A stretch of DNA of 62,079 nt, filler included, from 7 parts of 7 records of this genome joined end to end with filler, not necessarily neighbours in it; one strand, 5' to 3'. Shown: positions 1,014 to 58,909, counted from the whole stretch's first letter. Numbers and translations: made by a program. The notes: generated by a model from the sequence alone, not told the origin.

Positions 1014-4000
1014 ATGGAAAACAGCACCTTGAATTCGAAAAAACCGTCGCCAGCGGAAAATGCTGGCAATGCGCTGTCGAGTCCCTCTCCACAAAGTGGA
1101 AGTCAGAAGAAGACGAAGAAGGGTAAGAAGAATAGGAAGGGAGCTCCACCACCACCTCCACCTCCTCCTCCACGCGGGAAACCCGAACCGACCTTGACGA
1201 ACAAGTTAGCGGAAGAAAAGGCACTGCAGCGGTCCAAGGCAGTCGAAAAAATGCGGCGGAAGAATGCTGGAAGGAAAAGAGGGTCGAATATCCCGCCGCC
1301 TCCGCTGCGCGACGGCAGTGCCAGTGAAATGGAAGGTCCACGGTCAGCTGTGTCACCGTCTGGGTCGCCCAAGTCCGAGGGCGACACGTGGGCAACAACT
1401 TCCTCATCTTTGCATGGAGGAGAAATATTTGGAGCTCGTAAAAGTTTCACTCCCCGTGGTAGTTTTGATGCTTCCCCTGGCTCGTCACCCATTTCAAGGG
1501 CACAACGCCCACAATCCCACCAGACAACCCAACGCCACCACCACTTGTTAGCTCATCAGCGGGCCACAACAGCTCCGGCTCATTCGGAGATGCTAAACCA
1601 CCCTACCCTTGATCTTGGGCGCATGGACGAGACGCATGTGCCACCCCAATTGATGTTTGAACCGTTTAGCACAACGCCAGCCACAACCATCAGCTTTCAA
1701 GAATGGGCCCCTTTCGTAAACGATACAACATTGAAGCAGTTGTCGGTTTTTAATCGACTGGTTGAAGACCTTACCCTTCCGTCAACAATGCGTACATCAA
1801 CAGCAATGCTCCAGCGGGCGCTATCTGTTCAAACAAAGTTGAGGCGACTCTGCATTGTCGACACCTCCGCGACGGAACCGCAGGATGATTTGGACATGCG
1901 CGAATTGTCATTTTGGCGGATTGCCGGATTCAATTCCACCGGCCCACTCGTGCCGTCAGTTCGACAGCTTATCCTCGCTGGGAATGCCAGTTGGGTTGAC
2001 GATGAAGCGCTTGCAATAATTGGTGCCGTGTTCCCCGGACTCGCTCACCTCGATGTCGCTGGATGCCACCGTGTGAGTGATGTTGGGATTTCCGAAGTTG
2101 TGAGGAAATGTGATCGACTTCAGGCTTTGGTATTGAATGGTTGCTCACAAGTCACAGACTACGCTTTCCAGTTGCTTTGTCAAGCCGCCGGCCCACGTCT
2201 GATACACGTTGGTGCATCGGGCACAAAGATTTCTGATGGAGGCGTCAAGCGTTTGTTGGAAACTGCTCCGAAGTTGACTCGCTTGGAACTTCGTGGTTGC
2301 AGCTTCGACCCGGAAGTTATGCGGCGGATGATTGAGCGGGACGTTATCTACGGTGCTCGGCCAACGCGTGGACTACCTGTCTTGCGGTTTCTGGACTTGG
2401 CGTTTTGCCCACAGCTTCATGGATTGGCCATTGCCTGGATTGCAGCGGGATGCACGCAGCTTTCAGCCGTGTCTGTACGTGCATGTCCGTCTTTGCACAA
2501 TAAGGGCCTTTCCGGTTTCCAAGGCTGCCGCTCGTTGACAACGTTGGATCTTGCTCGAAACCCACATTTTGACGATGCGGGCATTGGCAGTCTGAAGGGC
2601 TGTGCGTCTGCTCCATCCCTTCGGCGACTCGACCTTGGAGGGTGCACGGGCATCAGTGATGCTGCTCTTCAGGCGCTTGCTGGAACATTCCCCTGTGTGC
2701 GCGATCTGAGTTTGCACTCGATAAAACACCTCAAAGGGCCCGGGTTGTTGGGGTTCCTTGTGGCCCCTCCTCGTAACTTGAATCTCGGCAATGCAAACTT
2801 ACCAGACGGAAGACTCGCATTCGCAGCTGCGACATTGACACGGCTGGATCTCGGTGGTTGCAAATCACTTCAACCAGAGGCCCTAATGGACGCTTTGCGA
2901 GCTTGTGAGGTCCTGCGAGATGTAAATCTCTCCGGGGTCGAGTGTGTCGATGACGACGTTCTTGCTGCCATCGAGTAAGTTGCCGACTAGCCCCACGCTT
3001 TGGAATGTCTATGCCGCTTCGAGGCCACGCGTCATTGGTCTGCCCGTTCGCATCCGCTGTTGCTCAAATCTATGGCATGTTGTTAATTGCTGGTTGGTCA
3101 GGTACTCCCTTCGCGCAGTACGGCGTCTGTCACTTTGTGGGTGCCCTCGAATCAGCAACTTTGGGTTGACACTTTTGCCTGTTGCAAACTTGACGAGTTT
3201 ATCGCTTAGCAATTTGCCGCGCATTGGGGCCGATGCTGTGGCAGCTGCTTTGGAGCCCATGCCTTCGCTGCAACAGCTCGACTTGTCGGGTTGCACCGGC
3301 CTTAAGGCCTCTCGTCTTGTCGGGGCTTTGTTGCGCGTGGGGCGGCTTTTCGCAAATAATCTGGGCGTTGAATCTGTTGGTGGAGTCATTACTAGCATGC
3401 ACGATCTTGAAAGGGCCCGGCGAGAATTTTACAATCACCACTCTGCTCCTCCAGCCCTTGCGTCTTTTGGTTTCAACCAGCGAGAAGGTACAGTGCCAGA
3501 AGTATCCTCGACGGTCCCGACTGCGGCCGAGTTGACAAGAAGCTCGATGTCGGTGAACAGCCCGTTTCTCACCAAGAATGTCGGGACCGGCGCGAGTACT
3601 GCTGCCGCAACATTGCTTGAGGCAACACGCATGGATGGAGAAAGTGATGCTTTGCTCCAAGATAACGTGGGTCTGCTTGGCCTACAAAGCCTGAATGTAA
3701 TGGACTGTCAAGACTTTGCGTTTGCAGGCGAACGCACGGCACTGATGCAGGCTCTTGATGAATTTACATCATCGTTGCGCGGAGTTTTGGTGCATCATTT
3801 GCAAGTTGTACGCGATGATGTGGACTTTGTGGGCTTGCGCACCGATCCCTCTGACTCGACTGCACTTCGACGACATGAATATGCCCATGCTTTTGCTTTA
3901 GCATGTGGGTGTGCATTGACGATCCAGTGTTTTTACCGAACCACAGTCGCACGGCAGAAGTACATGGAGCGTTACGCTCGACGCGCAAATATGTTGCATC

Positions 4001-7000
4001 GTGCCTGCACTGTTGTTCAAACTGCTGTTCGGGGTATGCTGGCGAAGAAAACTGTAGCTAAGCTCCGGCACGATGCAGCGCTCCAGGCAGCCAGGGATTT
4101 GGAGGCTCTGCGAATCATGGAAGCAAAATTTCGGGAGCAGCAAGCGAAGAAAGAGCGGCGATTTCTGTTGACCCGCACTTTTGGTTTTCTTCGTTTGTGG
4201 ACACGGGCCCGCCTTCAGGCGAAGCGATTGGCGAAAACGGCTCTCCGACTATGGGCCATATGGAGGGTCGTTAATGCTAGGTACGAGGCGCGGCGATGGA
4301 AGGCGTTTGTGAAAGCTCGTGTTGGTGTCGTGACAACATGAAAAGTCAAAGTGTAAGTACTTGATTCTGTTTCCCAAAATGCATTGATAGGTATGCACGG
4401 CGAACGCTGCTGCAGGTCTTGCCAGCTTTTCGAGGGGCATGCCGTGCACAGCGAATTCGACGGCAGCACCTGACGAAAGTTTTTTTGAGTTCCATTCCCG
4501 GTGTTGAGGCGCTTAATTCGTCAGCTCAACGCCATTCACAGCAGCTCTCTTTGCACTTCGCCCGCCGACGCTTTTGCAAGCCAGCTTTGGCTGTTTGGAG
4601 AACGGAGGTTCTTGACGTTTTGCATGACAAGCAACGCAGAGCAGCAATGCATTGTGATCGTGTGGCTTTGCGCAAAGCTTATCAAGCGTGGGGTGTCTGG
4701 CTGGCATATCACCACCAACGCCAGCAGCACAAACACAGGCAATGGGGACGAGCTGTTGCTCACCATGGCCGTATTCTATCGTTGAAAACTCTCCGAGAAC
4801 TTCGGCGGGCGGCTCAATGGGAACGTGAGCATAGGGCAGTGTTTGAAAAGCTGCGTGGAAAATTTGCCAGTCGCTTGGTTCTTCGCTGCTTCAACACGCT
4901 TGTGCAACAGATGCTACGCCGACGACGCAAGCATGTTGCGGATGCTCATGCCCGTTCTGCGCACAAACGAACCACATTGCGCTTTTTGAAACTTGCAGCA
5001 GACGCCACCCGTGGTCGCGACAGAAATTTTCGAAGCGCCGTGCGCCTTGCACTTCACCGTACAAAGAAACGATGCTTTCGGGCAATGTGGAAGTGGGTAT
5101 CCCGAGGGCGTCTGCTACCTCTCACTATTTTTAAAGTGAAAAGGGCACATGTCCTTGGAAATCATTTGGCATTGTGGAAGATTTTTGTCGAGCAAGACCG
5201 CGCCCGTGAGTCAGCAAACCGAGAGCAGTATTTGAAAGACCGAGCCGAACGCAAGCGCATCCTTCTGGAGCTACGACGCGTTGAAAACGGAGCCGCTTCC
5301 ATCATGCAAGCGATCTGGCGCGGGGCCGTTGACCGAAAATTTGCAGCATTTCGCCGCACATTCCTTGAAAAGTACGTGACACGTATTCAAGCTCTGTATC
5401 GTGGTGCGCAAGGCAAGTTGGTAAAACGCAAGCGTGAGCGAATGAAGCGTTTGTTGGACTACAAAGCACGAGAGGAAGATCAAATTGGCATGGAGCTTGC
5501 TGACCGTGAATCCCACCAATGGCGCAGTTTTGAGCGCGCAGTGACACGTCTGCAGGCAAATTTGCGCGGGAAATTCAGCAAGCTCTTCGCCTACCGAATG
5601 AAGCAAAAAATCGTTCGCCAACGCGCCATCGACGAGCGTGAACAGCGAAAACTTGCAATCAAGCGGGCGGAGAAAAAGGCGGAGTCACGCGCGGACGACT
5701 CTGCCTTGCGCGAGCTTATGGCTGTGCGAATTCAGTGTCTTTATCGGAGCAACAAAGCCGCAAGTGTCTACAAACAAGTCATTCGTCATCGTGAGTTGGT
5801 AAAATGTGGCACGAGGATCCAAACATGGTGAGTTTGGTCGCAAGTAGCGATGTGGAGGTAGTGGTTCGCTGCCAGAACTGTCCGTTGCTGAATTTCTTGT
5901 TGTTATTGAGGTTTCGAAGGAATTTTTCCAGCATTTTCGAATTTGTGGTTGCGTAATCCGCACTTGACAATAGAGCGTCGTGGTTGATGCTGCGAAGGTA
6001 CCGATTCCGGCAGGCAAACAAAGATCGCGCAAGGAAAATCCGGTTATTGAATATGAAAGTTGAAATGAACAAGCGCCGTCGTGCAACAGCGTCACTATTA
6101 CGTGGTTCAGGGCTTCGGACACGAAAGGTGCAGAATGAAGCTCGGCGCCAGCTTACAAAGTTTGGATTGTATCCAGATACTTTTTGTGGCGATCCCCAGT
6201 CACTTCGACAGTCGCTGGTGGATGACTGGCACGAGTTGCTGCGCCACGCTCGCTCATCATTTCGCTATTTTATGCACTTGCGACACAAGATGGCGTGGGC
6301 TCGGGACTTTGAAGTGCCAACAGAAAACGATGAACTCACCCTGCAGCAAGAGGAATGGCAGCCAGCCATTAGTCGGTATGACAGTGTTCAGGTGGTCAGT
6401 ATGGAGCATGCCCGCTTTGGCGAAACTGGCTTCGTTCTTGGATTTGTTGGAGACGGAGGGTACGGCACCAAAGCAGCTGTGAAAATGGATTCAGATGGAG
6501 TGCAAGTTTTCACACCCTTGTGGCAAGCCATCAAAGGCGTAGGACTTCGACCAACTTTAGTGCGAGTAGCCACACCAGTGTGGCGACGCTTTACGCAAGC
6601 TGATATAGATCCCTGCCGAACCAAGCTGCTTCTCTACGCGCAGAAGGCAGCTGTGCATCTGCGTGCTTACAGGGCGGCAAGGCGCGTTCAAAAAATTATA
6701 CGTATGCGCCACGCTCGTATTGCTATCAGTGAAACACGACGTTTATACTACCGGGTGAGTCACGGTATCGTCCTGCTCTTCTTTTGTGGCACAAAACTTT
6801 ACGACCTTAAATGCGAGGTTTGAATTCATTGCTTGTTTTTTTAATATCGTTTTTACAGGCAATTCAGCTGCGGCGACAACAGGTGTACCGCGTTTTGGCC
6901 CGTCTTCACCTCGCGACAGCAGCGAATGGAAGATTGTTGGTTAAGCTGCGGGTGCTCAAGCCAGAAGATATGCCGCACCTCCCCGAATCGATTGATTTCG

Positions 7001-10000
7001 ATTTTGCAGGCTACCGACGCAAAGTGGAACGATCCCTTCAAATGGAAATTAAAGATCTTTTTGAAGAAAAACGGGGGATGCTGTAAGTGAGCCCTGGCTC
7101 TGTTGGAATTGAATTTCGGATTTTGGGTGGAGATTGTTCTTTCGTACGTCTGACGTATTGATTTGCTGTCCAGATACCGCCAGGTGAAGGCCGGGAAAAT
7201 TGCCAAAGACGACGTTTTACGATGGCGCGAGCGGACACCTGCGGCATTGGCCATGACCAAGTTCACATCGTGGGTGCAGAAGCACGTTCTTTTCAAAGTC
7301 GCAGAGAAGCTCATTATTGACGGTGACACACTCGACCTTGACAACGACGAGGACGAGCGGTCTCGATTTTTGCACGGGCTGGCACGTGCTGTTGGTGGAG
7401 CAGATTTCTTTTACGATGTGGATGAACGCAACGCTTGGGCTGGACTGCATTTTCTGGAGGAGTTGCGTCATTCACCCCACGTTACTCATAACCCATTGTT
7501 CCCCGTGTCGGGTCACTGCATTGTACATGGGGTATGGGCTGGGAATGTGCCACATGGGGACGGAATGGCTTGGTTTCCGGTGGGGCGAGATCCGCAAGAA
7601 ATAATCTTTGCACGCCAAAAAGCTTCCTTCAAGGACGCCGATCGTGAGTGGCCGCTTTATGACGAGATCCAAGGCGTTTTTGACCAGGGGCGACTTCGAA
7701 CGGACGTTAAAACGCACATTCGCTTTCGCACCGGGGACCGCTACGTCGGCTTTTTTGTACCGTTCGGTGGTAAAGCACGGGGTGATCATCGTGGAACTTG
7801 GTACGATGAATTCAATTTGGAGCTTGCCTTTCAATCGCGTTTCAACACGTCAACACCTTCGTGGCACAGTTACCAATAAGGGCTCATTGTGGGACCGTCA
7901 CAAAAATGAAATTGCTGTGGCGTAGGTACAAGCACAATGGATGGGTCTATAAAGGAACATCCGTCACCAACCACTTTAACTTCAAGCAGATTCAAGGCTA
8001 CTTCCGCGTAGTGACCCCGAAAGGGGGGCGCTACACGGGCCACATCTACAACAACAAGCGTCATGGCTTTGGATACATGAAGTTTGGAGTCGGCGACGAC
8101 GCGGCACAGTCAGTATTTTAATCAGAGCTTAATTTGTCGTTTATCGGTTTCTGATTCACTGCTGATAGAAATTTAATGCTGAAATGCCTCCTTATCACTC
8201 CAGGTACCGAGGCGAGTGGCGGATAGGGTTGCGGCATGGGTTCGGCACATTTGTTAGCAAAGAGGGTGATGTGTACACAGGTGAGTGGGTGAACGACAAG
8301 AAGCATGGGCGCGGTGTGGAGAAGCTGGCTGATGGCGTAACTATTTACGAAGGCAACTTTGTGGACGGGCGATGGCACGGTGATGGTGTTCTCCGACGCC
8401 CCTCAAAGTACTTTCCTGGCCAAGTGGATCGAATTGAAGCGCAGTTTGAGTTCGTTCTCGCCTAGTTTGCTCATTTGTTGCGTTTCACAAACGCAAGTCA
8501 GAGTCTCACCTGTGGTTGTTGCTGTACGACGACTAGGTATGGTCATATTCATGGAAACGGGAAATTGTACTTTCCGAATGGTGATCGTTTTGAGGGCACG
8601 TTCGAAAAAAGCATGCGAGCAGGGCAGGGTAAAGTTTTTTTCACGACCAGTGAGCGGTTCGAGGGCAATTTTGAAGCGGACGAAATGCATGGCCGGGGGG
8701 TCTGGTCCAAGCCACGCGGGGGTGGATTTGACGAAAAGCGTGTCGGCATTTGGGACAAGGTGGTTTTTTATGTTTTTCGCATGTGGTTTGACCTATTCGT
8801 TGACGTTCATGGGTATTGCACTTAACAAGCCTTTCGATTCTATTTCATGCCGCACAAAGGGGAACCACCAGCGATGGCTAGGCTATGCGGTATCGAAACT
8901 GGTCACCACTGAGTTTTGTGACCGGTTTAGAGCTGACAATCCTGATAGTTTCAAAGGAATGTACGCGCAGTTTGTTGCCGAGAAAATTCCAGATCTGCCG
9001 ACAGGCGTGGACGGCACCGACGAACGTGTCAGCGAGATATTGTCCAAGATTATGCTTGAGCAAGGACCACTTGCGCAGAAACTCATGTTACAGAAAACTC
9101 AGGCGGAGTAAGTGGGGATGCTAGTTTCATCAAGCTCTGCTTTCACCAAGAATAGTCAACATGTACGAGCGGTAGAATGTGGCAAGTGACTTATTTGCAA
9201 CGCGCGACTGGATCATTGATTAGGTTTGATTTCCACCAGCCTGTTGCAAACGCAGCATCTGAAAAGCTGACAGAGGCCAAAATGAGGATCGAAGAGTGCA
9301 AAGACAATTTGGACATCGCTTCTCGACGAGTGCGACAATCCAAAGCGTTGCTGAAGAAGCTTCGGGACACGCGAGAGACTTTCGATAAAGAGCTTGACAC
9401 GTTCTGGAGCACTGACGAACATCGTCTGCAAGAACGCTACGAGCGATCTGTGAGTTTGCTAGAAGAGCTGGACCGAGAAGATTGGTGCGTTGTCCGTTTC
9501 ATTGACCGTCAGTTTCATCCGCCTTGTCGCTGTGAACATTAACGTGCATGGTTTGACAATGCCTCACCTACCTTTTTTTTTCAGGTATAAGCTACGAGCA
9601 ATCCCTTCGCCACCCCCTCCAATCGAGATGACGCTTCAGTCTTGCCTCGCGATATTTGGCATTTTAGACGTGAGCTGGGAAGAAGTCAAGCTTTTGTGCA
9701 ATGACAACATTGTGAATATGAGGTGCGTCTTGGCTGTTGTTTGTGTTTAAGCCCATCTGCGACACAGTGAGCAGTTTGGTAGTTTGGTAACCTTTTGCCT
9801 GAACCATGCACGGTTGTGGTTTGCATGCAGATACGACGATAAAGACGCTTTCATCAACACCTATGATAACAAGTTTGTGTTTGAGACAAAACGCTTAGAT
9901 ATTTACGCTGTGGCGAAGCGCCCAGTCACCAGTGAGACAATGAAGAGTATTGAGAGGGTATTCTATCACCCCGACGTCTTGCCCAACAACCCAGAAGTTT

Positions 10001-11625
10001 ACGAGACTTCCCTCGCCGCATCACGGGTTGTCGGGTGGTTTCGACGATTTTTCTTGTACGTTTTGCTCATTCACTCTGTGACGAACATAGGCACCTTGCG
10101 GCTCAGATATTAATCGTTTCATTTTGTTGCGCATTGACAGATACATGCGCAAGGCGCGAGAGGTTTTGGATGTTTATGACAAAGTCGTCAAAGTGAAGCA
10201 TGATCTCGACGAAGAAATCGACCGCTCGTATGAGTTGGAGGACAAGCTCAAGGATGCTGAAACCGAGCTACGCGAGGCGCAAACTCTGCTGGAAATCACC
10301 GAGGCGGTGCACACAACTGTGATGGACAAAAAGAACTATTTGCAAGGTTGCCTTGACAGCCTACATCGCACGATCATCGATTTAACTGGGAATACACTCG
10401 TGCGGGACATGGCATCTTCCACTCTTGAAGACGCATTACAGACCCGCGAGCTCAGCACAGACGACGTGTTCACCAAAGCTCGAGCGAATGATGTTGACGC
10501 CATTCACGCAATCCTTGAAGCTGACTTTGATGTTGGCACCCAAGACGAGAATGGGAATACTCTGCTGCACGTTGCTGCTCAGCAGGTCGACATTGAGCTC
10601 TGCAAGTTACTGGTGGAAAAGTACAGTGCACCCTTGGACGTGCAGAACAAGACGGGCAACACTGCACTGCACTACGCGCTGCACTATGGCGCGGAAACTG
10701 AACTTGGTCCGTACCTTATTGAAAAGGGCGCTTCGGATACAATAGATAACGCGCTGGGGCTCACGCCATACGATGGTGCGGGTGCGAGTGAACGAAAGGC
10801 ATTACGTGAAGCGACTGGGGATGCGACGGCTGGTCTCTTGAAATCCGACGACGAGGGCGAAGACTCGGAGCAAGACCAAGAGGCAACAAACACCAACTCT
10901 CAATCTTCAGCGCGAGGTAGCAACGAGCTTAAGGTGGACGAGGAGGAAAGCAAGACACAGACGGGGAATGTCACAGCTGGTGAGAGTAAAGGAGCCGTCG
11001 TTGCTGTCGAATTCGACAAAATGCCTATCACAGACAAAGAGAGTGCCTTTGGCGCTGCTGGTTCAGCCGACGCAGGTTCACTAACTCGTATGCTGGACGA
11101 TCGATTCGTCAATTGCTCCGTCACAGACGTAGATGAGGACGGCAACACGTACGTTGGTCTCCGAGCCGCTTGTTTTGCATCTGGCGAGTGGCGAGTTCAT
11201 CGTCGGCGTGTTGGTGTCTTGGATGTGTCCCAGATCGGTGGACATGTCTTGATGATTTGAATTGCATTCAAATCGTGAAAATGGTGTCAACACGTGGCTG
11301 ATTCCCTAACGAGAGTTCAATCGTCTTGATTAGGTATCTCCTCGCAGCAGCGAAAGCAATGCAGGGGCAAGATAACGTGTTCAAGTATCAGGGACTGATG
11401 CTCTCTTTGCTGAAACGCAAGTCCGATGTCAACCACGTCAATGTGCAGGGCAACACTGCCCTTCACTTTGCTTACCAGTACGACGAGAGTGGCAGTGTGG
11501 CTGCATTCTTGATTGAGAATGGAGCAGACGATACTGTGGTGAACCACGCTGGATTGACTTGCTACGATGGAGTTGACACTCTGCGCGAGCCTGGTGCGAG
11601 TGGAGGGAATGATGCTTTTTGGTGA
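1014..11625 (+). CDS. Giant (~3002 aa) multidomain protein: Pro-rich N-terminus, FBXL/AMN1-type LRRs, IQ motifs, SFI1-like repeats, MORN repeats, dynein stalk/MTBD-like segment, ankyrin repeats
   Basis: Manual 15-exon GT-AG model: 1014-2974, 3102-4280, 4391-5827, 5998-6754, 6859-7082, 7174-7800, 7926-8108, 8204-8449, 8537-8759, 8860-9107, 9224-9484, 9585-9722, 9831-10055, 10141-11148, 11334-11625. The exons total 9009 nt, are divisible by 3 and chain the long ORFs. Motifs: LRRLDLGGCTGISDAALQALA (LRR); IQALYRG, LQANLRG, MQAIWRG (IQ); ALRKAYQAW, KRCFRAMWKW (SFI1-like); YTGEWVNDKKHGRG (MORN); GNTALHYA (ANK). Confidence 0.8.
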
Positions 11626-11782: not shown

Positions 11783-13788
11783 CTACTGCGAGACCACGCT
11801 CTGGTCACCACTGGCAGTGTTCTGCATCAATTCAGCAAGTCGCTTCAGCCGATACTGGACTTCAGATACATATGCTGGACCAGCAATATTCGGTTGGCCA
11901 CTATCTGCCTCACCACGGCCTCCGCATCCATGCTCCCGGAGATAGTCTTGGCCGAAAAAACCACCGCCAGCCGGCTCAACTACGAATTGCGCGTAATGAA
12001 GTACTTGCTCAGAGGAAATCGGAAACATGCGCTCGAGCAACCCCTGCCGGTACGATTGTTCCTCAAGCTCAACAAGAAACTCTGCCAAGTCGACGTCGTT
12101 CGCATCCACGTCCAGTGGAACACCTGGACTACCAGCATTACCCACTTCATCGGGTGTGTCGTGCACAAGAGCTCTTGCTGGTGGCTTTGGTGAAAACTCA
12201 CGGTTCGTTAGGCCAAGCTCCATGGGTGCTGCTGCAACCGCCTTTGGTGGAAGGGGGACACCCACGAGGTTGAGTGTGTCTGCCAATAATCTACCCTTGA
12301 TCAGCTTATCCATTGGTGATGCAGCAGAGATATCTGGTGAGTAATTTAATTCCAGAACCTAATTGCAGGGGTTGGCAAGTGCACAGTTGGCGCAGGGGGT
12401 GTAGTGAACTGTGCGTGTGGCAAAGTACAACAGGAACTAAAGATGGCGAATAAAATTGCCGGTTTCACAAGCTTTGCGCCTTACGCATTGAGAAAGCCCA
12501 CCAACTCACCATAGGTTGTGCTTGATCGTCCAGAATAATATCAATGCCGTAAAGCTCAAACCCTTGGCGACGGTGCATGCCAGCCCTTTGCGCGGCTCCT
12601 CGAGAGTGAGCAGCAACGCTCAAGAGTGTCTTGATGATCACGTCGTTGATGCGCCCGCGAAGCTGAACGATGTCGACTCCGTCACTTTGAAGCCGCTGCA
12701 GCACTGCAGAGTAAGCGCGTTTGCTCCCACGCGACATGTCGTCAGCATCCTCGTTTTTTTCGTAATCCAAACTGTATTTTTGCACACTGTAGTTTGTGAG
12801 GTGAGCAAAGCTGTCACTGACCGTGGAAGGGTCCGCGGAGTACCTGCGCCACAGAATGGGGCAGCAAAATAGAGTCAGCCTCGAGGTGAAGAGCAAAACT
12901 GGATGGCCTCATAAAGGACGTGTACATTTTCAAGTGCACACCAACTCACGGAGTGGTGCAAAAGCGACCAAGTCCTTCCGGGAAGATGTAGCAACAGAGA
13001 GGATCCAACGATGTGACAACAACGTAGATTCTGAGGTCAAACTTGAGACCGTCGATGAGATACGGTCGTTTTAAGTAGCGCTGGACGACCACGGCTGCGG
13101 GATCTGCTGGCTGCTTAAGCTTGATCTCGGTGTTTCGAAGATCGGGGGGGAGTTGTTCGCGGGGTTGATTGACTTTTTCAAGCAATCGGTCTTTGTCTGC
13201 GGCAGCCCAAACGGTTATCCCTCGTCCTCTTGAGGCGGCGTACGGTTTCTCTATCCAGAGGCTGTCTGGCTCAGCATCCATGGTCTGCACCATTTTAGCT
13301 TTGTCAAACGGCAGCACGAAAGTCTCCGGGCAGACGCGTCCGTACTCTGCTGGGAAGCGCCGTCTGAGGTGAGCCATCGCGTGAGCTAAAAAGTTCTTGT
13401 GGCTGAGGAGGTGAGAACTTGGGAGGTGGTTGAGCTTGTGCCACGGGCGCAAGGTTTCTCGTAGCGTTTCATAGTGCTCTGCAAAGTGCCTGCCCCAGGA
13501 CAACGAAAAGTCGGCAAAGTCTCTGCCGAAACCAGCCAGCTTGATGGCGTTGATGAGAGATCTCTGCTCGTTGGGGGTGCTGAGATTGATGGTTTTGGCT
13601 TCCACCTCCAGCGTGCGAACTCCAGAGCGGTCTCGCTTCATGCCGAGTCCAGCAGGGTAGTCAAAGAACACGAAGTTTTCGCCGAGGGCTTTGCCTGCAG
13701 GAGTCCGAGCCAGTTGGACCGGGACGGTCACCAGCTTCTTCGGCTTCGCCGCCGGAGGCGGCGGAGGGGGAGGCGGGCCTCCAGACAT
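11783..13788 (-). CDS. Tubulin-tyrosine-ligase-like (TTLL4/5-like) tubulin polyglutamylase, ~582 aa
   Basis: Exons 13788-12950, 12843-12510, 12358-11783 (1749 nt). TTL motifs: WIEKPYAASRGRGI, QRYLKRPYLIDGLKFDLRIYVVVTSLDPL, GRFCT, HLTNYSVQK, FELYGIDIILD, and LELNYSP...SPMDKLIKGRLLADTLNLVG. The subfamily assignment is tentative. Confidence 0.9.
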
Positions 13789-14617: not shown

Positions 14618-17600
14618 ATGTGCAATGCAGTTTTAAGGGCTCGGACTGCGCCGTTTCTTCAATGGTGCCAAGTTGTATCGGTTGCGTTGATCTGTATCGG
14701 GCTTCTGTTGTTCCTGGTGGCCTTTTTGTCCATCTATAACTTGCCCCTGTACGCTGCAACAGCAGACCATGCGTATGATTGCTCTGGTACGTCCAAACTG
14801 CAACTTCAGCGGCTGCTGAATTTGAATTGAACCCGTGGAGCCGTTTGAAGGGCGGCTTTTGAATTTGCACGAAAATTCAACCTTGCCTGTGATATGATGC
14901 AGATGTTCCACTTCGTATGGCCGCGACGTGTGGGTACGACTGTTACGATTCTGCTCCGACAACGGTCTGCCAAAACAACATCGAATATCCGGAATTTGAT
15001 GCCGCAGCGTTCTTGTTCCCCGCCTCCGTGACTAAGGAAGACATTTTCCCCCCTCAGACCTATCCGACGGACTATTACTACTACTACTACTCATACTATT
15101 ACGGCAGGCGTATTAGTTACTACGGATTCTACTATTCCGCGGCGTATTCATCCAGTCTTTCGCAACTCACATCGGATTTCTTTCTCAGCGGCACCTCCAC
15201 GCCGCGACTGTACAGGTTTGGATTGGTACTGGGCAAAAAGTTCTCGGTTGCCTGTGGTTGCGCGAGCCTTTTTTTGTGCAATTGGGGCGTTTGACATTGC
15301 ATTTCAACTTCCGTCCCTTGCTTTTTGTTCGGATGCCATGTGCAGGAGCGGTGCTTGCGGAACCGACAACCCTCGCTCAATATTTCTGCCAACCTCGCTT
15401 CTGTCCACGTTCCAACTCTTCTGGAGCGGCGTGCGTGGACTTGACCCTCGAGTGTGCGTGTCATGATTGGACATGCCGAGTGTGTTCCCCCCTGCCACTG
15501 GTGTTTCCCGAACCGATGATCCGTTTTGGAAAACTCACTGTGCTCACGCTGAATCACATAGATGCCCGTATTGCAAGGATTCAAGACTTGGTTTTGGGTC
15601 GCAATGTACTGGATGTGTACAACAGTTCTGCAACAGCGATATTCCATGGCTGAACAACAACACAGCAATCGCGGCCTTGGGAGAACAATTAGAGTCTGCT
15701 GGTGTGACAGACCCAAACACGTTGGCACTCGCTCGTGATCATCCTGTTTGCAGCATTATTCCTGGCACTGGGTACATGCCATGTGGTCAAGGCCTTGGCT
15801 GCGATTACCACTGTAGCCCTGGCATGCATTGCACCGATGATCAGGCAAGTGTTTTCTTTGCTCTTGTTTCCCTCCGGTTTTGTCAATACGCTGGCTAGTC
15901 AATGACGGCTCGTTTGGTCGCTTGCACCTAGGCATGCGGCAAAGGGGCGACGTGCCAAGCGCTTTATTCGTGGGGAAATTTCGACGACGCTTTGAACGGC
16001 TCTGGTAAGTCAAGCGCAGAGCTGTTGCTCATTGTTTCACTGAACCAGTGCCTATTTTTGCCTAAAACATAGTTGAGTTGTTAAAATTTCCTTCGGTTTT
16101 GCTGGCATGGTCTCCTCCTTCTGCCCCTGGCCCATAGTTGTTTTTGATGCCGACCATTCTGGTGTAATCGGTTGGGCCGGTCAGATGACAGGCTATCAAT
16201 ACTATGGAAAAGTCGTGGATGAAGACCATCTGCAAATTTTTAGGAGGCGGCAATTACTGGAGCACAACAACGTGAGCGACAAACAGCATAAAACAAAGCT
16301 TGAGTTTCAACAGCGGCTCGATCGTGCGCAAGTTGACTCAAGCGATTTTGCTGCCGATGATGTTGGCGGGGCTCCGCGAAGGCAGCTTGCTGTTTGCGGC
16401 AACACATGCTCGTACGCTTTTGATGGTGACTGCGATGATGGTGGCCCAAACTCGGACTTTTCAGTCTGCAACTACGGGTCTGACTGCGGCGACTGCGGTG
16501 TACGGGATCAAGATGACGGTGGCTACGACACTGCATACTATCCAACTGTTGAAGCGTGCCCTGCCGAGGAGCCAGGATGCATCTGCACGAACGAATGCGA
16601 GCATTCCAGGAACTTCAACTGTGAAGATGGCGGTGAAGGCTCGTCAGAGTTCATTTGCGATCTTGGCTCCGACTGCCGTGACTGCGGACCGCGGTAAGCA
16701 TTTTGTGCTTCGGTGGTTGTATCGAGGTGGAGTATCCAGTTTGAGCGATTCAATTAGAGAAATCCCATGCCCGTTACAACCGTCGCTGTGCTGTCGCTTG
16801 CTTGCACGCAGATATCCCAAATGCGGAGAATTCTGTGATACTATCGATAAAAGTCCAGGTGACTTTGCAGTGTTCTCGGGCCTTGGCTGCTCGACCAATG
16901 GAAACGGAATTTGCGAAGATGGTGGCCCTGGCGCGACGGCGGCAACCTGCGAGTTTGGTCAAGATGCTGACGACTGTGGACCTCGCGCCCTTGATGGCTT
17001 TGGTTTTTGTGGACACAGATGCCGTGATTCCACACTGTTTAAAGTGTTGTGCATCGGCATCGTGCTGTCGCTTATCACTATGGCGCTTCTTGCGACTGGC
17101 AAGCGCTGGATTAGGCAGTACGACGACGGGCGCAAGAAGACGTTCACAATATGCCTCGTCAACTTTAGTCTTTTGTTTTACACCGTGTGCGTGTGGTCTT
17201 TCATGGGCGCGTGTGCCTCGGACGATATCGGAATGAATGAAGGCTCCATTGGAACGATGTCCAGCAGTATCGTTGCGTTTGGTGTTGCAATGGGGTTTCT
17301 TGGACTGGGCATTCCGTGTGCCTTGTTTTCTTGTGCACCACGCAATTTTGTTCTCACGTACGCGCATGATAAGATTGCTTATCATACTCTCACTTTTTTG
17401 ACCACATTCTTTGCTTTCCCCTCGTTCCCAGATCAGTTGCGTTTGGCCTCACATTGACCGTTTGTTGCGCCTTGACCATTGCTGACCTCGGCAGGTACAC
17501 GTATATCATTGGCGGTATATTTCTTGGCGCTTTTACTCTTGTTGGGCTCTTTGCGGGAATAGAACGGAGAGAGTTTCAAGGTGATTTCACAAGCCCAATC

Positions 17601-20600
17601 GAAATGAATCAGCGTAAAGCTTTCAATATCGCCCAACTATACCTTGGCAAAAGTCAAATGGAGAGCGATTATTGGCTATTCTCGTTGGCCGTCACAACTG
17701 CCCTACTGATGGCAAGCCTGATTTTGAACGTAACATTTGCGTTTGCGAACAATGGCCGCTGCAATTGCCGCAATGGCTGCATGTACGTACCCATTCTTAT
17801 CGCCAAAGCTGTTCTTGCTCAGGCACATGTGGGCCATGGAGTGGCGATGCATTTATTTTTTGCTGTGACGTTTTGTATGGGCAATCAGCTACATGGAATA
17901 TGTACCAGCCAGGTTGCTCGTTTTCTGGGCCGTCCACATCGTGTTCCTCTACGACGACCGTTCGCAGCTTGGCAACTGGGTGCTTTGCCTTCTGGTCATG
18001 CTATGTTTTACAATACTTCAACCTGCATTCTTCGCGTTGTTGGGATTCTGCACCGCGGTAAAGGAGCAGTCCAATCGATTCGTCGAGCATCCACATCCTG
18101 GCCCTGAGCCTACCTTGATTGCGCTCAGCATTGGCGACGTGGTTGAACAAGTTCGTGAAGCAGGTCCCTTCACCTGTTGTTCCGAACGCCCATGCACGTC
18201 TGTTGGCAACATGCATGGTTTTGCGTTGGCCGACGTGTGAACGTGTGTCGTGTGCTCTTAGGTGGCCAACCAACAAGGGAATGGATCTGTACTATTACGG
18301 ACGATTCAGGAAGCCCCCAAAGTAGTTTTGACGGCTGCAATTGGACGCGATCGAATTTGGGGCACGCAGCAATGCGATGAGGTGCGGAATGTATTGTGTT
18401 TCACAACGCCGTGCTGTCTTGCGCTTGGCGGATTTGCAGTGCACCACACGTAGTAATGCTTGAAGCATTTGCAATGAGGCTTCCACTTGGTATGATGATC
18501 AAGGTCCGCGACTTGAAGAATGTAATGCCCGGAGCCTTTGGCGATGACGGTACCCCATGGCCTGGCGGCATGGCATTTTATCGCCCAAGGTGCGCTCCTG
18601 GCTACCTCCCACTTGGTGATGTGTTTGCTCTCGACACGTTGCTTCCGGATGCAGCAGTGGATTCGTCAGCTGTGGACGTTTCCGACGCGTCACTGGAACT
18701 GAAAGAAGACTTGGACCACTTTCGGGCTGCGGCTCGAATGGTCGGAGCAGAGGCGGTGGCAAAGTCAACAGGGAATGTCGCGGACGTGGCCCGCGCTGCC
18801 AAGCTGAAAAAAGTGGTTCGTAGCCAAATGGAAACTTCAGCCATTGAGCTGCAGAACATGCAAAGCGCGACGCAGGCCTATCAGCAACAACGCAGCAGTG
18901 CTGCGCGATTGGCCGAAAGAATGGCTGGGGAACAATATATCGGAACGGCACTTGCACTGCCTTTCTGTGTCGTGCCCGCCAAACGCTTTACCCTAGTGTG
19001 GCGCAACCACCCGTCGTGGAACCGCCACGACCTGCAAGACCTGAGTATCTGGATTCCTGAGGATGAAATAGGCGAGAATGGCGAACGGTGGGACTCGATG
19101 AACGTGTTTTTGTGATGTCGGATGTTCTCTGTTATGTTTGCGGTAACAAGTGAATCCCGATTTGTGTTTGTGGCTTTCCAGTTACCGCCCGCTTGGGTGC
19201 GTGGCAGTCATTGGTGTAGGCGATCCTGAGCCAGGATGCATTGGCCTGGTTGCTGAATCCTTGCTCAGACTGAGACCTGATTCCCAATGGGCCACCCCTG
19301 GAGCGACGTTCCGTGACCCTGCCACCACGTTGCGAATGGTATGGAATGCCCGAGCGACGCTCTTTAACACAGAAGCTCTTGGTTCAGTTTTGTGGGCACG
19401 CAATGTGTTGATGGAAGCCGACGATATTGAGAGCCGATGGCGTCGAGGCCTACGGGCCTTGGACGAAGATTGTGAGACTCCCTCTGAAATGTAAGTCCTG
19501 GACTTTTACCCCAGTCGGCTATATGTGCCGGCGGCAATCGTTGATGTTGCGCTCTCTGGGGTTGTAGGTATAACAAGTTGGACGAACTTGTGAAACTACC
19601 AGCTCTGGTACAGCCAACAAAGTCCGCCTCCGAACTCAAAGGTGGCAGCCGCGACGTTCTGAATCAACTTCGTGTCGAGGTACTTGCGGTTGGGCGACGT
19701 TGCCGGCAACGGTGTGGTCGACTTTGGTCTTCGGCTTTCAAAGCCAAATTTCGAGAAATATTGTTAAAGTTTGATCAAGAGCAGCTTGATGATGGATCTT
19801 CCGAGAAGCCCTTTCTCTTGCATCTCAAGGATGTGCAGACGGGCGAATCCATGCCTGTGCAGGTATGTTCTGATTGGTCGTTTGAGAGGGTACAGCACCT
19901 TCTTCGTGACGTTCGAAAAGAGCCTCCGAGTACTCTTGGCCAAAAAAAGGCTATTAGCTTCATATATGCAGGAGTGCGTATGGAGCCGTCAGCCCGGCTT
20001 CTTCAAAGCAACGTCCTCGCAGGCAGCACGCTGTACGTGTCATGTTTGGTGATTTTCATGCTTGTTTGTGAATGATGACGGGCTCATTGGTGGTGCGAAA
20101 CCACTCACGCCGCAGGTACTACCTGTTGACTCCGAAGTCCGATGTTGTACATCTTCCTCAGCCGCACGTTGATCACGATGCTGGAACTGATGCTGCAAAT
20201 GAACTTGAAGCAAGGGCAACTGCAGCAGCTGCACAGCTGCGTTGTCGGAACAACGACACTCACATGCTTCGAGGTGTGCAAGTGAAAGGAAGTAGGGCAG
20301 CCAGGCGCTGTAGTGAGTGTCTCCACCCACAGAAGCAGAGCAGTCTTTGCTACCAGTGTGCTGACAACTGCGCATTTCGGCTGTGCCCGACGTGTGTACT
20401 TCGTCTGGAGCAACAGCAAGCAGGAAGCGAAGCACCCTGCACGACAATTTGGGCGGTGACTGTTGATGGCCGGGATGCGCACCATCGTCACACTCTTGCG
20501 CTCCCGCTTGCAGTAGCTGCCGCATCATCAGAATCCCATCCTCGAGCATACGACATCAAAGATGGTAGTTTGGCAAGCCCAGATCTCTTCCAAGACACAC

Positions 20601-21289
20601 TTTCTCATGCTTTACTGGAGCGATCGCGTGCAGAGTGGGCACAACAGTTGGAGCAACATACGCGATCCATCAGCCTGAGTGATGAAGGGCCTGGTTGTTG
20701 GTCACGCGGGAATCCCGTGAAGAGAGTAATCTACTTCAGGGTATTTTGGCTCTGGGCTGTACTGTACGTGCTCGGTGGTTTGCCCACCCATGTCTGTTCG
20801 CCAACTCAAGCTTCTGATCAGCTTTGGCTGGAACCTTTCCATGATCGTTGCGCTTTGTCTGAATGGTGCGATTGTAGGTATTTGGTCTACTGTTTGCCGC
20901 TCCCAGCTCTGGTCGGAAGCTACGACGTGCGCGTCGCGACACTTTTTGGCGAGCAAACACCGTGTCAGCTTGACGAGGATTTTAATGTTGTATGGGGCGC
21001 ATGCGAGTGCAGCGATGGAATATCTGGCTACCGTCGTGCTACTGTGGATCTGACCGACATTGGGACGGAGCTGTACGTTGCAGACACCAACTACCCTGCG
21101 CCTGCTTTGTTCCGAACGTGATCGAGTGCTTGAGCTGTGTTTGTCAAATGATCGGTTTGCAGGTACCGTGGAGAGTGTACAGTGAAGATCAACGGTACTG
21201 TATACGCGGCATCACTGGGTGGTGCCCGTGTTGCAGAATGGAGGGACGACCACTGGGTTTCAGCTGTTTTTGAACCATGCACATGCTAG
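14618..21289 (+). CDS. Large multipass membrane protein: extracellular Cys-rich region with three C(D/E)DGG repeats, several TM helices, then Vps62-like, ubiquitin-like and Cys/His Zn-finger-like modules
   Basis: A manual ~16-exon model links the ORFs (introns include 14787-14902, 15845-15931 GC-AG, 17358-17494, 17783-17888, 18382-18503, 20033-20115, 21073-21162; stop TAG 21287-21289). Repeats: CDDGGPNSDFSVCNYGSDCGDCG, CEDGGEGSSEFICDLGSDCRDCG, CEDGGPGATAATCEFGQDADDCG. Vps62-like: FYRPRCAPGYLPLGDV, LVWRN, LSIWIP, YRPLGCVA. Ubl-like: FIYAGVRME...SNVLAGSTL. Zn-finger-like: CSEC...YQCADNCAFRLCPTC. Confidence 0.6.
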
Positions 21290-44438: not shown

Positions 44439-44441
44439 GAC

Positions 44442-56849: not shown

Positions 56850-57080
56850 TTGTTTCTCTTGTTTCTTTTTTTTTTTTTTCTTGCTTGTTTATTGCGTTCA
56901 TGGCACTTTTTCGCGGCTGTTTGGTTCTGTGAACAAAGTTGCTGCTTTGCCCTCCCCCTCCCCAGCTGCAATGCTGTCCGACCCATGACGTCAGCAGATC
57001 ATCTGCGTGGGCACCAGCAGCAGTGGGGGTGACTTTCAACGAGTGTGCCGTCTGTTGGGTCAAGTCAGGCACGCAGCAGA

Positions 57081-58909
57081 ATGCTACGGCGCTCTACTTT
57101 TGATCGAGTGTACGAGTACTGCTACAGCCGCATTGAGTCGGGCGAATTTGCCCTCGACGCAGAAGCGGTCGAGCAGGATCTTGCTCACCTCATTCGTCAG
57201 CAGCCGCAGCAGCGTGAGCGTGACCGTGAGCGTAAGAGTGAGAGTGAGCAAGGTCACGCCATCGAGCCAGAGGCAGAGCTTGAGCGTGCGGTTGAGGGCG
57301 AGCAGGAGCAGCAGCAGGAGCGAGAGCAAGGGTATGGGTGTGAGCGCGAGGGCGAGCAAGATCATGACCGACCAGTGACGCCTGTTCGGACGGGAGCTGC
57401 AGCGCGAAGCGGCGGCAGCAGGTCTGCAGCAGCGCCTGGCCCAGCAGATTTCGAAGCTCACGAACGAGGTGCTGCGCCTCTTGAGTCTCGCTCGATTTGG
57501 ATGTCGCTTGATTTGGATGTGGTGACGAGCATCTTCCGGTCCTGCTATAAAGGTTTTATGAAGGCCAATGCACGCTTGTTTCGAGTGGACGCTGCGAAGG
57601 CACGCAAGTTCCTAGACCTTTGGCGCCGCGGTGCAGAACCACCGTCACTGTTGATGATCGCACGGCAGCACAAGCTGCCGCCTATGAAAGTTGCCAAAGC
57701 CGTCCTCAACACCCTGAATATTGCAAAGCCGCCGCTTGCTGCGGAGCAAGCAGGTCCAGGCTCCTCAGCAGAATCTGCTGCTGCCGATGCGTTGTCGAGC
57801 AGGACCAGTCCGTTGCCCAATCATTCGAAGCCGCTGGTGAAGGTCTGTCGAAACTGCGTTTTGATGCGAGCAGCGTACCTTGCAGGTCCCCTAACTCCGA
57901 CGATGGTTCATTGGTAGGTCGAAGACAACACATCGCTTTTGGCGTTTGATCCTCGATTGCGACGTGACATTGAGGTACGCTCGCTGACGTTGGTGATTGA
58001 ACCATTTTTTCCGGGCTTACGTGGCTTACTTGAAAGATTCACGTGTGCGGCAGGAGTGTGTTGCTATGGATCGATTCGAGGGCCCGGACAGCGAAATTGA
58101 GAGGCAAAGCATCGGTCAAGAATACGAGTGCGTACGAAACGCGCGCTTGGTTTCCGCCGATCGTTCCAGATGCATCGTACACGCTACACGTCTCATGTAA
58201 ACACTGCACTTACTCTTAGGTACATCTTGCAGGAAACGCTTCGCAACATTGGGGTTCCTTTTCAGCTCGAAGGACACTTACGCGAGCAGGGACTAGTGGT
58301 GTGTTTTCAACCACGACCTGAAGACCCGCTCCACCGTGGGTTGCCAGTCGCTGGCTCACCCGTCGGTGCTTTTTTGTGTTTGCGCCGCAGGCAACACCAG
58401 ACACGCTCCTCGTTGTCCCTGCTGTTGTGCACAACCCTGTGACAAATCAGGTCCGTCGAACAATTGATGTGTTGCGTCTTCGAGAAAAAAATAATGAGCG
58501 CTCTGGCGCGCTGAGTGAAACGCCTGAGCTTTTGATTTTCTTTTTTTTGTTTTTGCGCTGCTGGCCGTCTCTGTCCCAGTCGCACGTTGTCAACTGGATC
58601 GAAAGCAAGGCAATGTTCGGCGACCCCGCACAGCATAAGGACAACTTTTATCAGCTGGAGAAATACGTGGAACGGTATGGTGTCACATTGCGGTCTCGCC
58701 TTGGTTCAAGCACCGATCGCTTGCGTGGAGCACTTCGACCGCTCACTTTGCCTGCTTCAATTCCTGGCGCTGGTAGGTACGGGCCTGGAATGGTCGTGTA
58801 TTGGTTCGGTTATGTAGAAGGCCTCAACAACCCCAACGACGACGGCTGGCCGTGGGATGACCTTATCCTCGTCGTCAGCAGGATTCCTCCCGAGATGCGT
58901 GCAAGGTAG
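57081..58909 (+). CDS. CDIN1: CDAN1-interacting nuclease 1 (C15orf41/TPD-domain) homolog
   Basis: Spliced ~7-exon model gives IGQEYEYILQETL..GVPFQLEGHLREQG..TPD, VNWIESKAMFGD, QLEKYVERYGPGMVVYWFGYV, which are hallmark C15orf41 motifs. Confidence 0.88.

Follow-up and report, generated by a model that had tools for sequence, protein, structure and literature searches.

Intron multiplication is a long-standing open question, and the recognition of introners has so far depended on copies that are still alike. In Symbiodinium and Polarella, introner-like elements duplicate a 4-nt target, the upstream copy becoming the 5' splice site, and insertion-site needs are held to drive the phase bias of these dinoflagellate elements (bioRxiv 10.1101/2020.10.14.339549; PMC9860276). 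The introners of Micromonas pusilla and Aureococcus are presented as short DNA transposons whose duplicated target gives one splice site, and in Fritillaria borealis an exonic TAC adjoins transposon-derived non-canonical introns (PMC11282704). A bias of introners towards weakly expressed genes is also reported (PMC9860276). Our literature search returned no paper joining introners with GTAC, although the per-family target duplications listed in PMC12130899 Dataset S2 and PMC9860276 SI Table 6 may include a GTAC family; among the matches listed, work on intron gain and phase 2 made no reference to a tyrosine codon, and work on introner phase bias and phase 2 did not describe the pattern reported below.

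Here we analyse the introns of protist genes in one window, that is, the whole stretch of 62,079 nucleotides under study. We lean towards the view that about half of the introns on its eukaryotic contigs form one class, added in each lineage just upstream of a pre-existing exonic GTAC, likeliest by introner-like insertion.

Material and Gene Models

The window is made of seven linker-joined contigs, one of them bacterial, and the sample comprises these 62 kb plus one orthologous fragment, the TTLL gene of a relative (L001) obtained from a metagenome scan with a TTLL exon; the scan with an exon of the gene at 14618-21289 found no relative. Run X1, which is on record as 'RNA?' only, was usable on one contig (14039-24672), where it yielded one 8423-nt contig that passes over 15 listed stretches and has one further joint. 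Fourteen of these introns have GT..AG borders and the fifteenth GC..AG after a shift by 2; the RNA thus confirms all 15, and their excision leaves a single open reading frame of 1681 codons from 14618 to 21289, the phases being, in order, 1, 2, 2, 0, 1, 2, 2, 2, 0, 0, 2, 2, 2, 2 and 2. The other models come from a gene finder that scores intron-side bases only, exon-side bases being invisible to it. It recovered 13 of the 15 RNA introns, and its counts are probably low because one of the two that it missed is an intron of the class described below.

RNA set and finder together supply 49 introns, to which 10 homology-placed CoA-transferase introns and three of CDIN1 were added, giving a set of 62. 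Twenty-five of these are backed by RNA or homology, all in the gene at 14618-21289 and the CoA-transferase gene, and the remaining 37, backed by the ab initio finder alone, are predicted. Protein searches with a GPR155-like exon found no match among longer proteins and, against 1.84 billion representatives, only its own unspliced reading frame; a CDIN1 exon matched its own reading frame and one relative of 110 aa, apparently with an insert left unspliced at the corresponding site, and CDIN1 had no match among solved structures. In the Protein Atlas, an exon of the gene at 14618-21289 gave weak zinc-finger-like leads only, and an Rfam search over the window detected no snRNA or other family.

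A Phase-Dependent GTAC Motif at Exon Starts

Introns of the GTAC class and related introns are given below by position, strand, phase, the first letters of the following exon (and of the intron where informative) and backing.

16694..16811, +, phase 2, exon ATAT (N+TAY); RNA contig joint
17358..17494, +, phase 2, intron GTACGC..., exon GTAC; RNA joint, 4 letters fit both sides
17783..17888, +, phase 2, intron GTACGT..., exon CTAC; RNA joint
18382..18503, +, phase 0, exon GTCC (G-T-N-C); RNA joint
19088..19181, +, phase 2, exon TTAC; RNA joint
19491..19567, +, phase 2, intron GTAAGT..., exon GTAT; RNA joint
20033..20115, +, phase 2, intron GTACGT..., exon GTAC; RNA joint, 4 letters fit both sides
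20764..20877, +, phase 2, intron GTACGT..., exon GTAT; RNA joint
21073..21162, +, phase 2, intron GTACGT..., exon GTAC; RNA joint, 4 letters fit both sides
25543..25638, +, CoA-transferase, phase 0, exon GTAC (Val-Gln); spliced alignment, 5/5 homologues
26054..26155, +, CoA-transferase, phase 2, exon TTAT; spliced alignment, 5/5 homologues
26205..26298, +, CoA-transferase, phase 0, exon GTCC; spliced alignment, 5/5 homologues
26886..26984, +, CoA-transferase, phase 0, exon GTCC; spliced alignment, 3/5 homologues
5828..5997, +, giant gene, phase 2, exon GTAC; exon-blind gene finder only
7083..7173, +, giant gene, phase 2, exon ATAC; gene finder
7801..7925, +, giant gene, phase 2, intron GTACGA..., exon GTAC; gene finder
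8109..8203, +, giant gene, phase 2, exon GTAC; gene finder
8450..8536, +, giant gene, phase 2, exon GTAT; gene finder
9485..9584, +, giant gene, phase 2, exon GTAT; gene finder
9723..9830, +, giant gene, phase 2, exon ATAC; gene finder
10056..10140, +, giant gene, phase 2, intron GTACGT..., exon ATAC; gene finder
11149..11333, +, giant gene, phase 2, intron GTACGT..., exon GTAT; gene finder, less sure at 185 nt
12844..12949, -, TTLL, phase 2, exon GTAC; gene finder, L001 without intron and with the same Pro-Tyr codons unbroken
12359..12509, -, TTLL, phase 0, exon GTTC (Val-Leu); gene finder, absent in L001
34432..34578, +, GPR155-like, phase 2, exon GTAT; gene finder
35006..35094, +, GPR155-like, phase 2, intron GTACGT..., exon TTAC; gene finder
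35308..35443, +, GPR155-like, phase 2, exon GTAC; gene finder
36008..36095, +, GPR155-like, phase 1, intron GTACGG..., exon GGAC (G-N-A-C), sole phase-1 match; gene finder
37511..37601, +, GPR155-like, phase 2, intron GTACGT..., exon CTAC; gene finder
58128..58219, +, CDIN1, phase 2, exon GTAC; gene finder
58675..58776, +, CDIN1 candidate of the first-pass annotation, intron GTATGG..., exon GTAC; plausible, Pfam match in two stretches

The last of these is invisible to the finder because it is 102 nt long, in frame and stop-free.

The first-pass annotation had claimed that introns here sit preferentially in phase 2 before one base and a Tyr codon (N+TAY), and the RNA bears this out: 8 of the 15 RNA introns are of this kind (binomial P 3e-12 against site frequency in the same CDS), exactly the count that it gave for this gene, and its junctions at 17358-17494, 17783-17888, 20033-20115 and 21073-21162 agree to the letter with the RNA contig. 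At the joints at 17358, 20033 and 21073 the four letters that fit either side are a GTAC/GTAC repeat. Such introns number 22 among the 49 of the RNA set and finder, and in the exon-blind models and the set of 62 as a whole a Tyr codon comes next after 24 of 35 phase-2 introns (P 7e-31), whereas each codon neighbouring that one is Tyr in only 1-2 of 35. The preference thus stands, and so does the count for TTLL (1/2 by both), whereas the other per-gene counts came out differently in the exon-blind models: 9/14 against the annotated 11/14 in the giant gene, 4/12 against 7/12 in the GPR155-like gene, 1/3 against 2/6 in CDIN1 and 1/10 against 1/12 in the CoA-transferase. Internal repeats as a source of inflated counts were rejected, the giant, 14618-21289 and GPR155-like proteins giving no self-hits at E<=1e-3.

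Introns in the other phases extend the pattern, since the same tetramer is read G-T-N-C after phase-0 introns (5/22) and G-N-A-C after one of five phase-1 introns. With the wobble base masked in this way, GTAC ranks first of 256 tetramers, with 30 matches against 1.22 expected among the 62 introns and 13 against 0.49 among the 25 that RNA or homology backs, which supports the proposal of introns at GTAY or GTAC targets; 32 of the 62 lack the motif. Two more phase-0 exons begin GTC-TTG, TTG being a Leu codon like CTG. Val (GTN) does follow phase-0 introns often, as had been remarked (8/22, P 4e-5), and upstream exons are indeed free of AG bias, AG ending 2 of 30 exons before motif-class introns against 7 of 32 before others (P 0.15). 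GTA or TA alone was rejected as the target, both because the phases of GTA (77/69/93) would not yield the observed bias and because C at +4 belongs to the phase-0 pattern; GTGC as a phase-2 target was likewise rejected, N+TGC beginning 2 of 35 exons, near the roughly 1.6 expected from Cys codon usage, and N+TGT none.

That all this is a product of gene modelling or chance is scarcely credible. The 37 ab initio junctions do come from a finder that misplaced two of the 15 RNA-proven introns, but the RNA-proven set by itself shows the preference, the exon-side bases were never visible to the finder, and the same motif occurs independently in L001.

Lineage-Specific Positions in the TTLL Gene

The TTLL proteins of the window and L001 are identical at 166 of 211 aligned residues (79%), and 61 of 84 four-fold sites differ, synonymous sites thus being saturated. 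None of the six intron positions in the two lineages is shared: four introns precede a conserved Tyr and two a conserved Val-Leu, and the intron-free orthologous sites read straight through the same codons. The absence of shared positions together with these uninterrupted sites therefore marks the introns as probable lineage-specific additions at pre-existing codons, in line with the ortholog comparison proposed earlier, a single site taken alone being readable as gain or loss. The two complete phase-2 introns of L001 start GTACGTG... and are followed by exons starting GTAC. A Tyr codon left as a 3-nt insertion scar was rejected, the intron-free orthologue having the same Tyr.

The single old wave of gain first proposed has to be modified, for two lineages saturated at synonymous sites each have such introns of their own; one possibility is that the process was at work in each separately, the other that loss thinned a common set. 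In its full form the latter reading, which we rate as quite unlikely, makes the ancestor extremely intron-rich at GTAC sites, the lineages keeping different subsets so that only the losses are recent. Saturation allows ample time for loss, and by calculation six positions thinned to two and four share none with a probability of 1 in 15, but the ancestor would need at least six introns in 211 codons, and the origin at GTAC is left unexplained, so that this reading alters the timing and not the mechanism.

Phase Bias and Drift at Free Positions

Phase 0 is usually the commonest intron phase. Here the 62 introns are distributed 22/5/35 over phases 0/1/2, phase 2 making up 56%. GTAC in the mature coding sequence falls mostly in phase 2 of codons (19/17/63), and the phase bias of the introns therefore follows from the target. 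An estimate from the same availability gives about six phase-1 motif introns where one is seen, which counts against an introner-like explanation.

The suggestion that TA is held by the Tyr codon while wobble bases drift is well matched by the data. C and T at +4 stand at 16:8 against 189:80 in codon usage, seven of the nine bases other than G before TAY lie in codon families where G would be synonymous, and A occupies +3 in only one of eight phase-0 GTN cases, GTA being 11% of Val codons. Because the wobble positions have drifted, the motif looks historical, not required by the spliceosome. G at +1 is nevertheless more frequent in motif phase-2 introns than drift predicts (15/24 against a background of 33.5%, P 0.003), which hints at some present function. 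We consider it unlikely that a spliceosomal preference for G-T-A at the downstream exon start, with introns surviving only there or selection keeping exon starts, is the explanation: this excess of G, its presence in 4/4 intron-bearing against 1/4 intron-free alleles at the four TTLL Tyr sites, and the exon-initial GT after 8 of 22 phase-0 introns all speak for it, but the motif is missing from over half of the introns, 6 of the 15 RNA-proven ones included, the free positions drift, just 2 of the 11 phase-2 introns outside the motif class are followed by G at +1, and such a preference cannot create the conserved Tyr codons that the intron-free orthologue already has.

Search for a Target Duplication and an Intron Family

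Of the 30 motif introns 11 have a donor beginning GTAC, as do 4 of the 32 others (Fisher P 0.038), a difference that is not significant among RNA- or homology-backed introns only (5/13 against 2/12, P 0.38). In the GTAC-donor introns, the two of L001 included, the next base is G in 17/17 and the next two are GT in 14/17. The fossil GTAY duplication proposed in the first-pass annotation would be one reading of these ends: GTAC does stand at both the intron start and the exon start, as an across-intron match, whereas locus-specific identity is weak and confined to positions 6 and 7. Within against between loci, identity is 15 against 14.1 at position 3 and 12 against 13.8 at position 4, with an excess at positions 6 (13 against 7.8, P 0.008) and 7 (11 against 6.7, P 0.048), these P values being uncorrected for eight positions tested; when positions 5-12 are taken together, P is 0.26 for all introns and 0.015-0.018 for two subsets. 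By the criterion of PMC9860276, the duplication call is 'ambiguous'. Tandem duplication of an AGGT-containing segment, by which the 3' end of an intron would repeat an upstream exon end in AG, does not describe these introns: in the RNA set, exon ends and intron ends are no more alike than expected (P 0.98 and 0.64), and over all 49 introns P is 0.11 in the last 4 bases and 0.04 in the preceding 8.

The expected transposon trace did not appear in the 62 kb searched. In an all-against-all blastn of 49 introns the best pair scored 24.3 bits, 10 shuffles giving 22-28 bits, the L001 introns had no match at E<=1e-3 in the window introns or the whole window, and terminal inverted repeats of window introns, sought at five offsets, matched no better than shuffled pairs.

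New Daphnia introns are reportedly flanked by short direct repeats, for which staggered-break repair has been proposed. Insertion at GTAC by such a route and with no mobile element, a staggered break in the palindrome being filled in and then mended by means of unrelated filler DNA, would account for an end repeat of only 4 letters and for introns that are each unique and lack terminal inverted repeats. Random filler would, however, rarely provide G and T at +5 and +6, a branch site and a 3' AG, whereas about one intron in two belongs to the class and its GTAC donors continue so uniformly with G; we therefore regard this route as improbable.

Proposed Mechanism and Significance

The most likely mechanism is the insertion of introner-like DNA with a 4-nt target duplication. 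The GTAC copy upstream, extended by the G and T with which the insert begins, would form the 5' splice site GTACGT, the insert would supply the 3' AG, and splicing would restore the original codons exactly. Most such introns would lie in phase 2 before Tyr, since in these genes GTAC is most often read as the final G of one codon and a following TAC. Protein-level selection would afterwards fix T and A where the codon is Tyr, and G, T and C where Val precedes a codon starting with C, leaving wobble bases and the inside of the introns to decay. That GTAC was duplicated and not merely preferred is what we infer, and a mobile element would be the presumed agent. More tentatively, most introns of this lineage may descend from a single insertion machinery that recognises only the palindrome GTAC, possibly a DNA transposon of an undescribed kind; working separately in sister lineages, it would have marked the target with a footprint still legible through the genetic code when the introns have decayed past recognition.

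As a separate observation, 21 of 146 Tyr codons bear such an intron in three intron-rich genes and 1 of 123 in six intron-poor ones, a sharp split that fits the introner bias to weakly expressed genes (PMC9860276).

The footprint, with the motif at about 25 times expectation, lasts longer than the intron sequences and can be seen, at different positions, in two diverged lineages. Should it extend genome-wide, about half of this lineage's introns would be assignable to one target-specific process, and the lineage would offer a direct case of phase bias arising from target position in codons, as argued for dinoflagellates (bioRxiv 10.1101/2020.10.14.339549), together with a method for finding bursts of gain that are old, in which wobble-masked target motifs are read by phase. 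If the single GTAC machinery is real, exon sequence would by itself allow ancient bursts to be counted and dated, here and in other genomes where similarity-based introner searches find nothing.

Comparison with Known Systems

With the classical proto-splice site MAG/GT the class shares a downstream exon that often begins G-T, but it lies outside that group, having AG upstream in few cases, A at +3 and C at +4 in its motif, and phase 2, not phase 0, as its dominant phase. The TAC of Fritillaria borealis precedes the intron and helps to form a non-canonical 3' site, whereas here the introns are GT-AG and TAC comes after them. Like the introners of Micromonas pusilla and Aureococcus, these introns would take one splice site from the target and the other from the element, and their gains would be lineage-specific; those introners form thousands of near-identical copies, whereas here the footprint is on the target side only.

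The closest likeness is to the Symbiodinium elements and the class 4 and 5 elements of Polarella glacialis, whose target is GHNN and whose element end is the 3' splice site. They differ in that the target here is one palindrome, GTAC, that donors are GT where theirs are GC or GA, that the bias is to phase 2 where theirs is to phase 0, and that no family of similar introns or terminal inverted repeat is seen here, the duplication being indistinguishable from plain site preference. In both, the intron start equals the first four letters of the downstream exon, upstream exons may end in any letters, splicing restores the coding sequence exactly, and the phase bias is set by the place of the target in codons; on the mechanism proposed here, the 3' AG would likewise lie within the insert.

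Genes and introns in the window

The window (62,079 bases) consists of seven contigs joined by linkers in which a 12-base six-frame stop sequence lies between two runs of 44 N. Since it is a pseudomolecule of this kind, genes from different contigs are not genomic neighbours.

Contigs and linkers of the window
1-13938, contig; 13939-14038, linker
14039-24672, contig; 24673-24772, linker
24773-33669, contig; 33670-33769, linker
33770-39500, contig; 39501-39600, linker
39601-50294, contig; 50295-50394, linker
50395-56749, contig; 56750-56849, linker
56850-62079, contig

Pfam matches place among the eukaryotic genes a giant LRR-IQ-ankyrin protein and a TTLL, an unknown membrane protein (14618-21289), a beta-helix protein, a family III CoA-transferase, a teneurin-type EGF protein, a GPR155-like Mem_trans protein, a coiled-coil protein, TIM21, CDIN1 and the large subunit of ribonucleotide reductase. 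The contig at 39601-50294 is bacterial; it carries Pfam matches to SufBD, a class V (SufS-like) aminotransferase, FlgT, a TraF-like protein, a poly(A) polymerase head domain and a short-chain dehydrogenase (SDR), and introns are absent. It probably represents an associated or contaminating bacterium in the assembly, at a guess a gammaproteobacterium, going by the presence of FlgT.

Introns resolved by RNA

One 8423-nt RNA contig of a public sequencing run matches the contig at 14039-24672 with zero letter differences and skips 15 listed stretches, 14 bounded by GT..AG and one by GC..AG once shifted by 2 (the RNA-backed intron at 15845-15931, GCAAGT...AG). Excising these 15 introns leaves a single ORF of 1681 codons; because one ORF results, the run is spliced RNA of the organism, and the junctions that the first-pass annotation had read from the DNA in gene 14618-21289 are confirmed by the RNA joints. 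Ten of the introns are in phase 2, with three in phase 0 and two in phase 1. Eight of the 15 are N/TAY introns (phase 2, followed by one exon base and a Tyr codon), an enrichment with a binomial P of 3e-12 relative to how frequent such sites are in this coding sequence, and of 1.4e-10 relative to Tyr usage among the ten phase-2 introns. The four letters GTAC fit both sides of the joint at 17358, 20033 and 21073, and three letters do so at 19491 and 20764.

The same RNA contig (window 14367-24505) spans the convergent genes 14618-21289 (+) and 21595-24417 (-), whose 3' ends probably overlap or abut. One of its pieces starts exactly at 21725, the edge of a predicted minus-strand intron (21604-21724), which may be a sixteenth RNA joint.

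A curated set of 62 introns

Further introns came from homology and from a gene finder whose score draws on codon usage, on the composition and length of introns and on the six donor and six acceptor bases on the intron side, and which is blind to every exon-side base at the junctions. The finder retrieved 13 of the 15 RNA introns and, since one of the two that it missed is an N/TAY intron, its counts of this class should be conservative. In the CoA-transferase (24985-27397), whose first exon is 57-71% identical to homologues that are mostly bacterial-type, introns were placed by spliced alignment of five homologues to the DNA; nine were recovered by four or five of the five and a tenth by three. 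Within ~1.2 kb of coding sequence this gene holds no fewer than 10 introns, six in phase 0, four in phase 2 and zero in phase 1.

The curated set (15 RNA, 10 homology and 37 finder introns) is distributed 22/5/35 over phases 0/1/2. A Tyr codon follows the first exon base after 24 of the 35 phase-2 introns (P 7e-31), and in each of the two neighbouring codons on either side Tyr occurs in 1-2 of 35. No internal repeats were found in the proteins carrying the introns, so the intron positions are mutually independent. The preference for N/TAY positions is real and strong.

For CDIN1 the only relative found, P0122, is an ORF of 110 aa that comes from a different assembly. Where the first-pass annotation places an in-frame 102-nt intron (58675-58776), P0122 has an unrelated insert of ~29 residues, as if an intron there were likewise read through.

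The target motif and its drift

The preference extends beyond tyrosine: Val (GTN) follows 8 of the 22 phase-0 introns (P 4e-5), and the next base is C in five of these and T in two, both reading GTC-TTG, in which TTG encodes Leu just as CTG does. When all 256 tetramers were scored against the coding background with the phase-appropriate wobble position(s) masked, GTAC ranked first, with 30 matches among the 62 introns against 1.22 expected; the 25 RNA- or homology-backed introns gave 13 where 0.49 would be expected. The sole phase-1 match reads G-G-A-C.

GTAC is spelled solely at positions held by protein selection, and the free positions have drifted. In phase 2, position +4 is C or T in a ratio of 16:8, like the TAC:TAT usage of 189:80, and +1 is G in 15 of 24, with 7 of the 9 non-G bases lying in codon families in which G is synonymous; in phase 0, just one of the 8 has A at +3, GTA making up 11% of Val codons. 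A target motif frozen at insertion would look like this; a motif on which splicing still depends would not. The earlier proposal of intron gain at GTAY targets followed by a coding-constraint filter is supported, and it is sharpened in two ways: the target is GTAC, seen in phase 0 too, and the positions are lineage-specific in the gene compared below.

In mature coding sequence GTAC occurs 19, 17 and 63 times across phases 0, 1 and 2, and because its sites fall mostly in phase 2, the phase-2 excess of introns is largely explained. Phase 1 is rarer than this spread predicts (1 motif intron seen against ~6 expected, an estimate from counts), and the phase-1 share of all modelled introns (5 of 62) is below both this spread and the usual eukaryotic pattern.

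GTGCGT is a common donor here too, and GTGC was considered as a target. N+TGC follows 2 of the 35 phase-2 introns, near the ~1.6 roughly expected from Cys usage; since such exon starts are not enriched, the A at +3 reflects target specificity and not just the need for a working donor.

Intron-rich and intron-poor genes, and two possible sets of introns

In three intron-rich genes an N/TAY intron sits at 21 of 146 Tyr codons, and in six genes poor in introns at 1 of 123 (P 2e-5). The large subunit of ribonucleotide reductase (59131-61563, minus strand) is an uninterrupted ORF of 811 codons with 14 in-frame G/TAC sites and zero introns. TIM21 (55524-56663) likewise has zero introns; per kb of coding sequence, genes in the window carry anywhere from 0 to ~8 introns. 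The upstream exon ends in AG at 7 of 32 non-motif introns and 2 of 30 motif introns, a difference that is not significant (P 0.15); the non-motif introns would fit an older, classical set.

Comparison with a relative

Scanning metagenomes with a TTLL exon yielded one locus, L001, whose protein is identical to the window TTLL at 166 of 211 residues (78.7%), the identity from which orthology was inferred; four-fold sites have reached saturation, with differences at 61 of 84. Over the compared stretch two introns interrupt the window's gene, a phase-2 intron at Pro/Tyr and a phase-0 intron ahead of Val-Leu. L001 carries four, at Arg/Tyr, Lys/Tyr, ahead of Val-Leu (phase 0) and at Leu/Tyr; three of these are complete, and of one the 3' end is present. 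None of the six positions is common to both, and wherever one species lacks the intron, its sequence runs through the same Tyr or Val-Leu codons without a break. The codons therefore predate the introns, which are additions or differential losses, and Tyr as an insertion scar is ruled out by the same Tyr at intronless orthologous sites. The first-pass annotation had named ancient and shared positions as refuting evidence; in TTLL, the one gene compared, the positions are not shared and appear lineage-specific, whether by gain or by loss. Both complete phase-2 introns of L001 start GTACGTG, and the exons after them start GTAC.

There is some possibility that the exon +1 G has a present function: it is held above background in motif introns, and in TTLL +1 is G at all 4 of the sites that carry an intron and at 1 of the 4 that lack it.

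The last ~50 bases of L001 (1798-1847, the contig end) resemble what we take to be a sequencing-library adapter and so are not genomic. GT/GC-rich microsatellites lie inside L001 introns (421-470, 961-1000) and at contig ends in the window (14040-14090, 24640-24672), and the first contig terminates in an A run (13917-13938); the assembly seems to break at low-complexity DNA.

Proposed mechanism and relation to known introners

The motif introns share one layout: an arbitrary exon end, an intron opening with GTAC and G(T) and closing with its own AG, and an exon starting with GTAC. In an introner-like insertion at GTAC, target duplication would give the 5' splice site and the intron would carry its own 3' AG. 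From this layout we infer that the introns may work as introners recruiting a 5' splice site from the duplicated target, with GTAC duplicated and a transposon as the putative agent.

Of the traces of such elements that the first-pass annotation had proposed to seek, an all-against-all comparison of 49 of the window's introns gave no pair that exceeded the similarity of shuffled sequences, L001's introns matched nothing in the window, and inverted termini were not seen in the window's introns. As to the repetition of intron start at exon start that it had noted, locus-specific identity is weak, with an excess at positions 6 and 7 only; pooled over positions 5-12, locus-specific identity has P 0.015-0.018 in two subsets and 0.26 over all introns. 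GTAC donors are found at 11 of 30 motif introns and 4 of 32 others (P 0.038), a difference that is not significant in the 25 best-supported introns. The GTAC match at both ends is common to all motif introns and hence, by the criterion of PMC9860276, cannot prove duplication.

In the introners of Symbiodinium and in classes 4 and 5 of Polarella (bioRxiv 10.1101/2020.10.14.339549; PMC9860276), a 4-nt target duplication forms the 5' splice site, the 3' site comes from the element, and the phase bias is explained by what insertion requires of its site. The layout found here matches that of these introners, whereas the target, unlike theirs, is a specific palindrome, GTAC.
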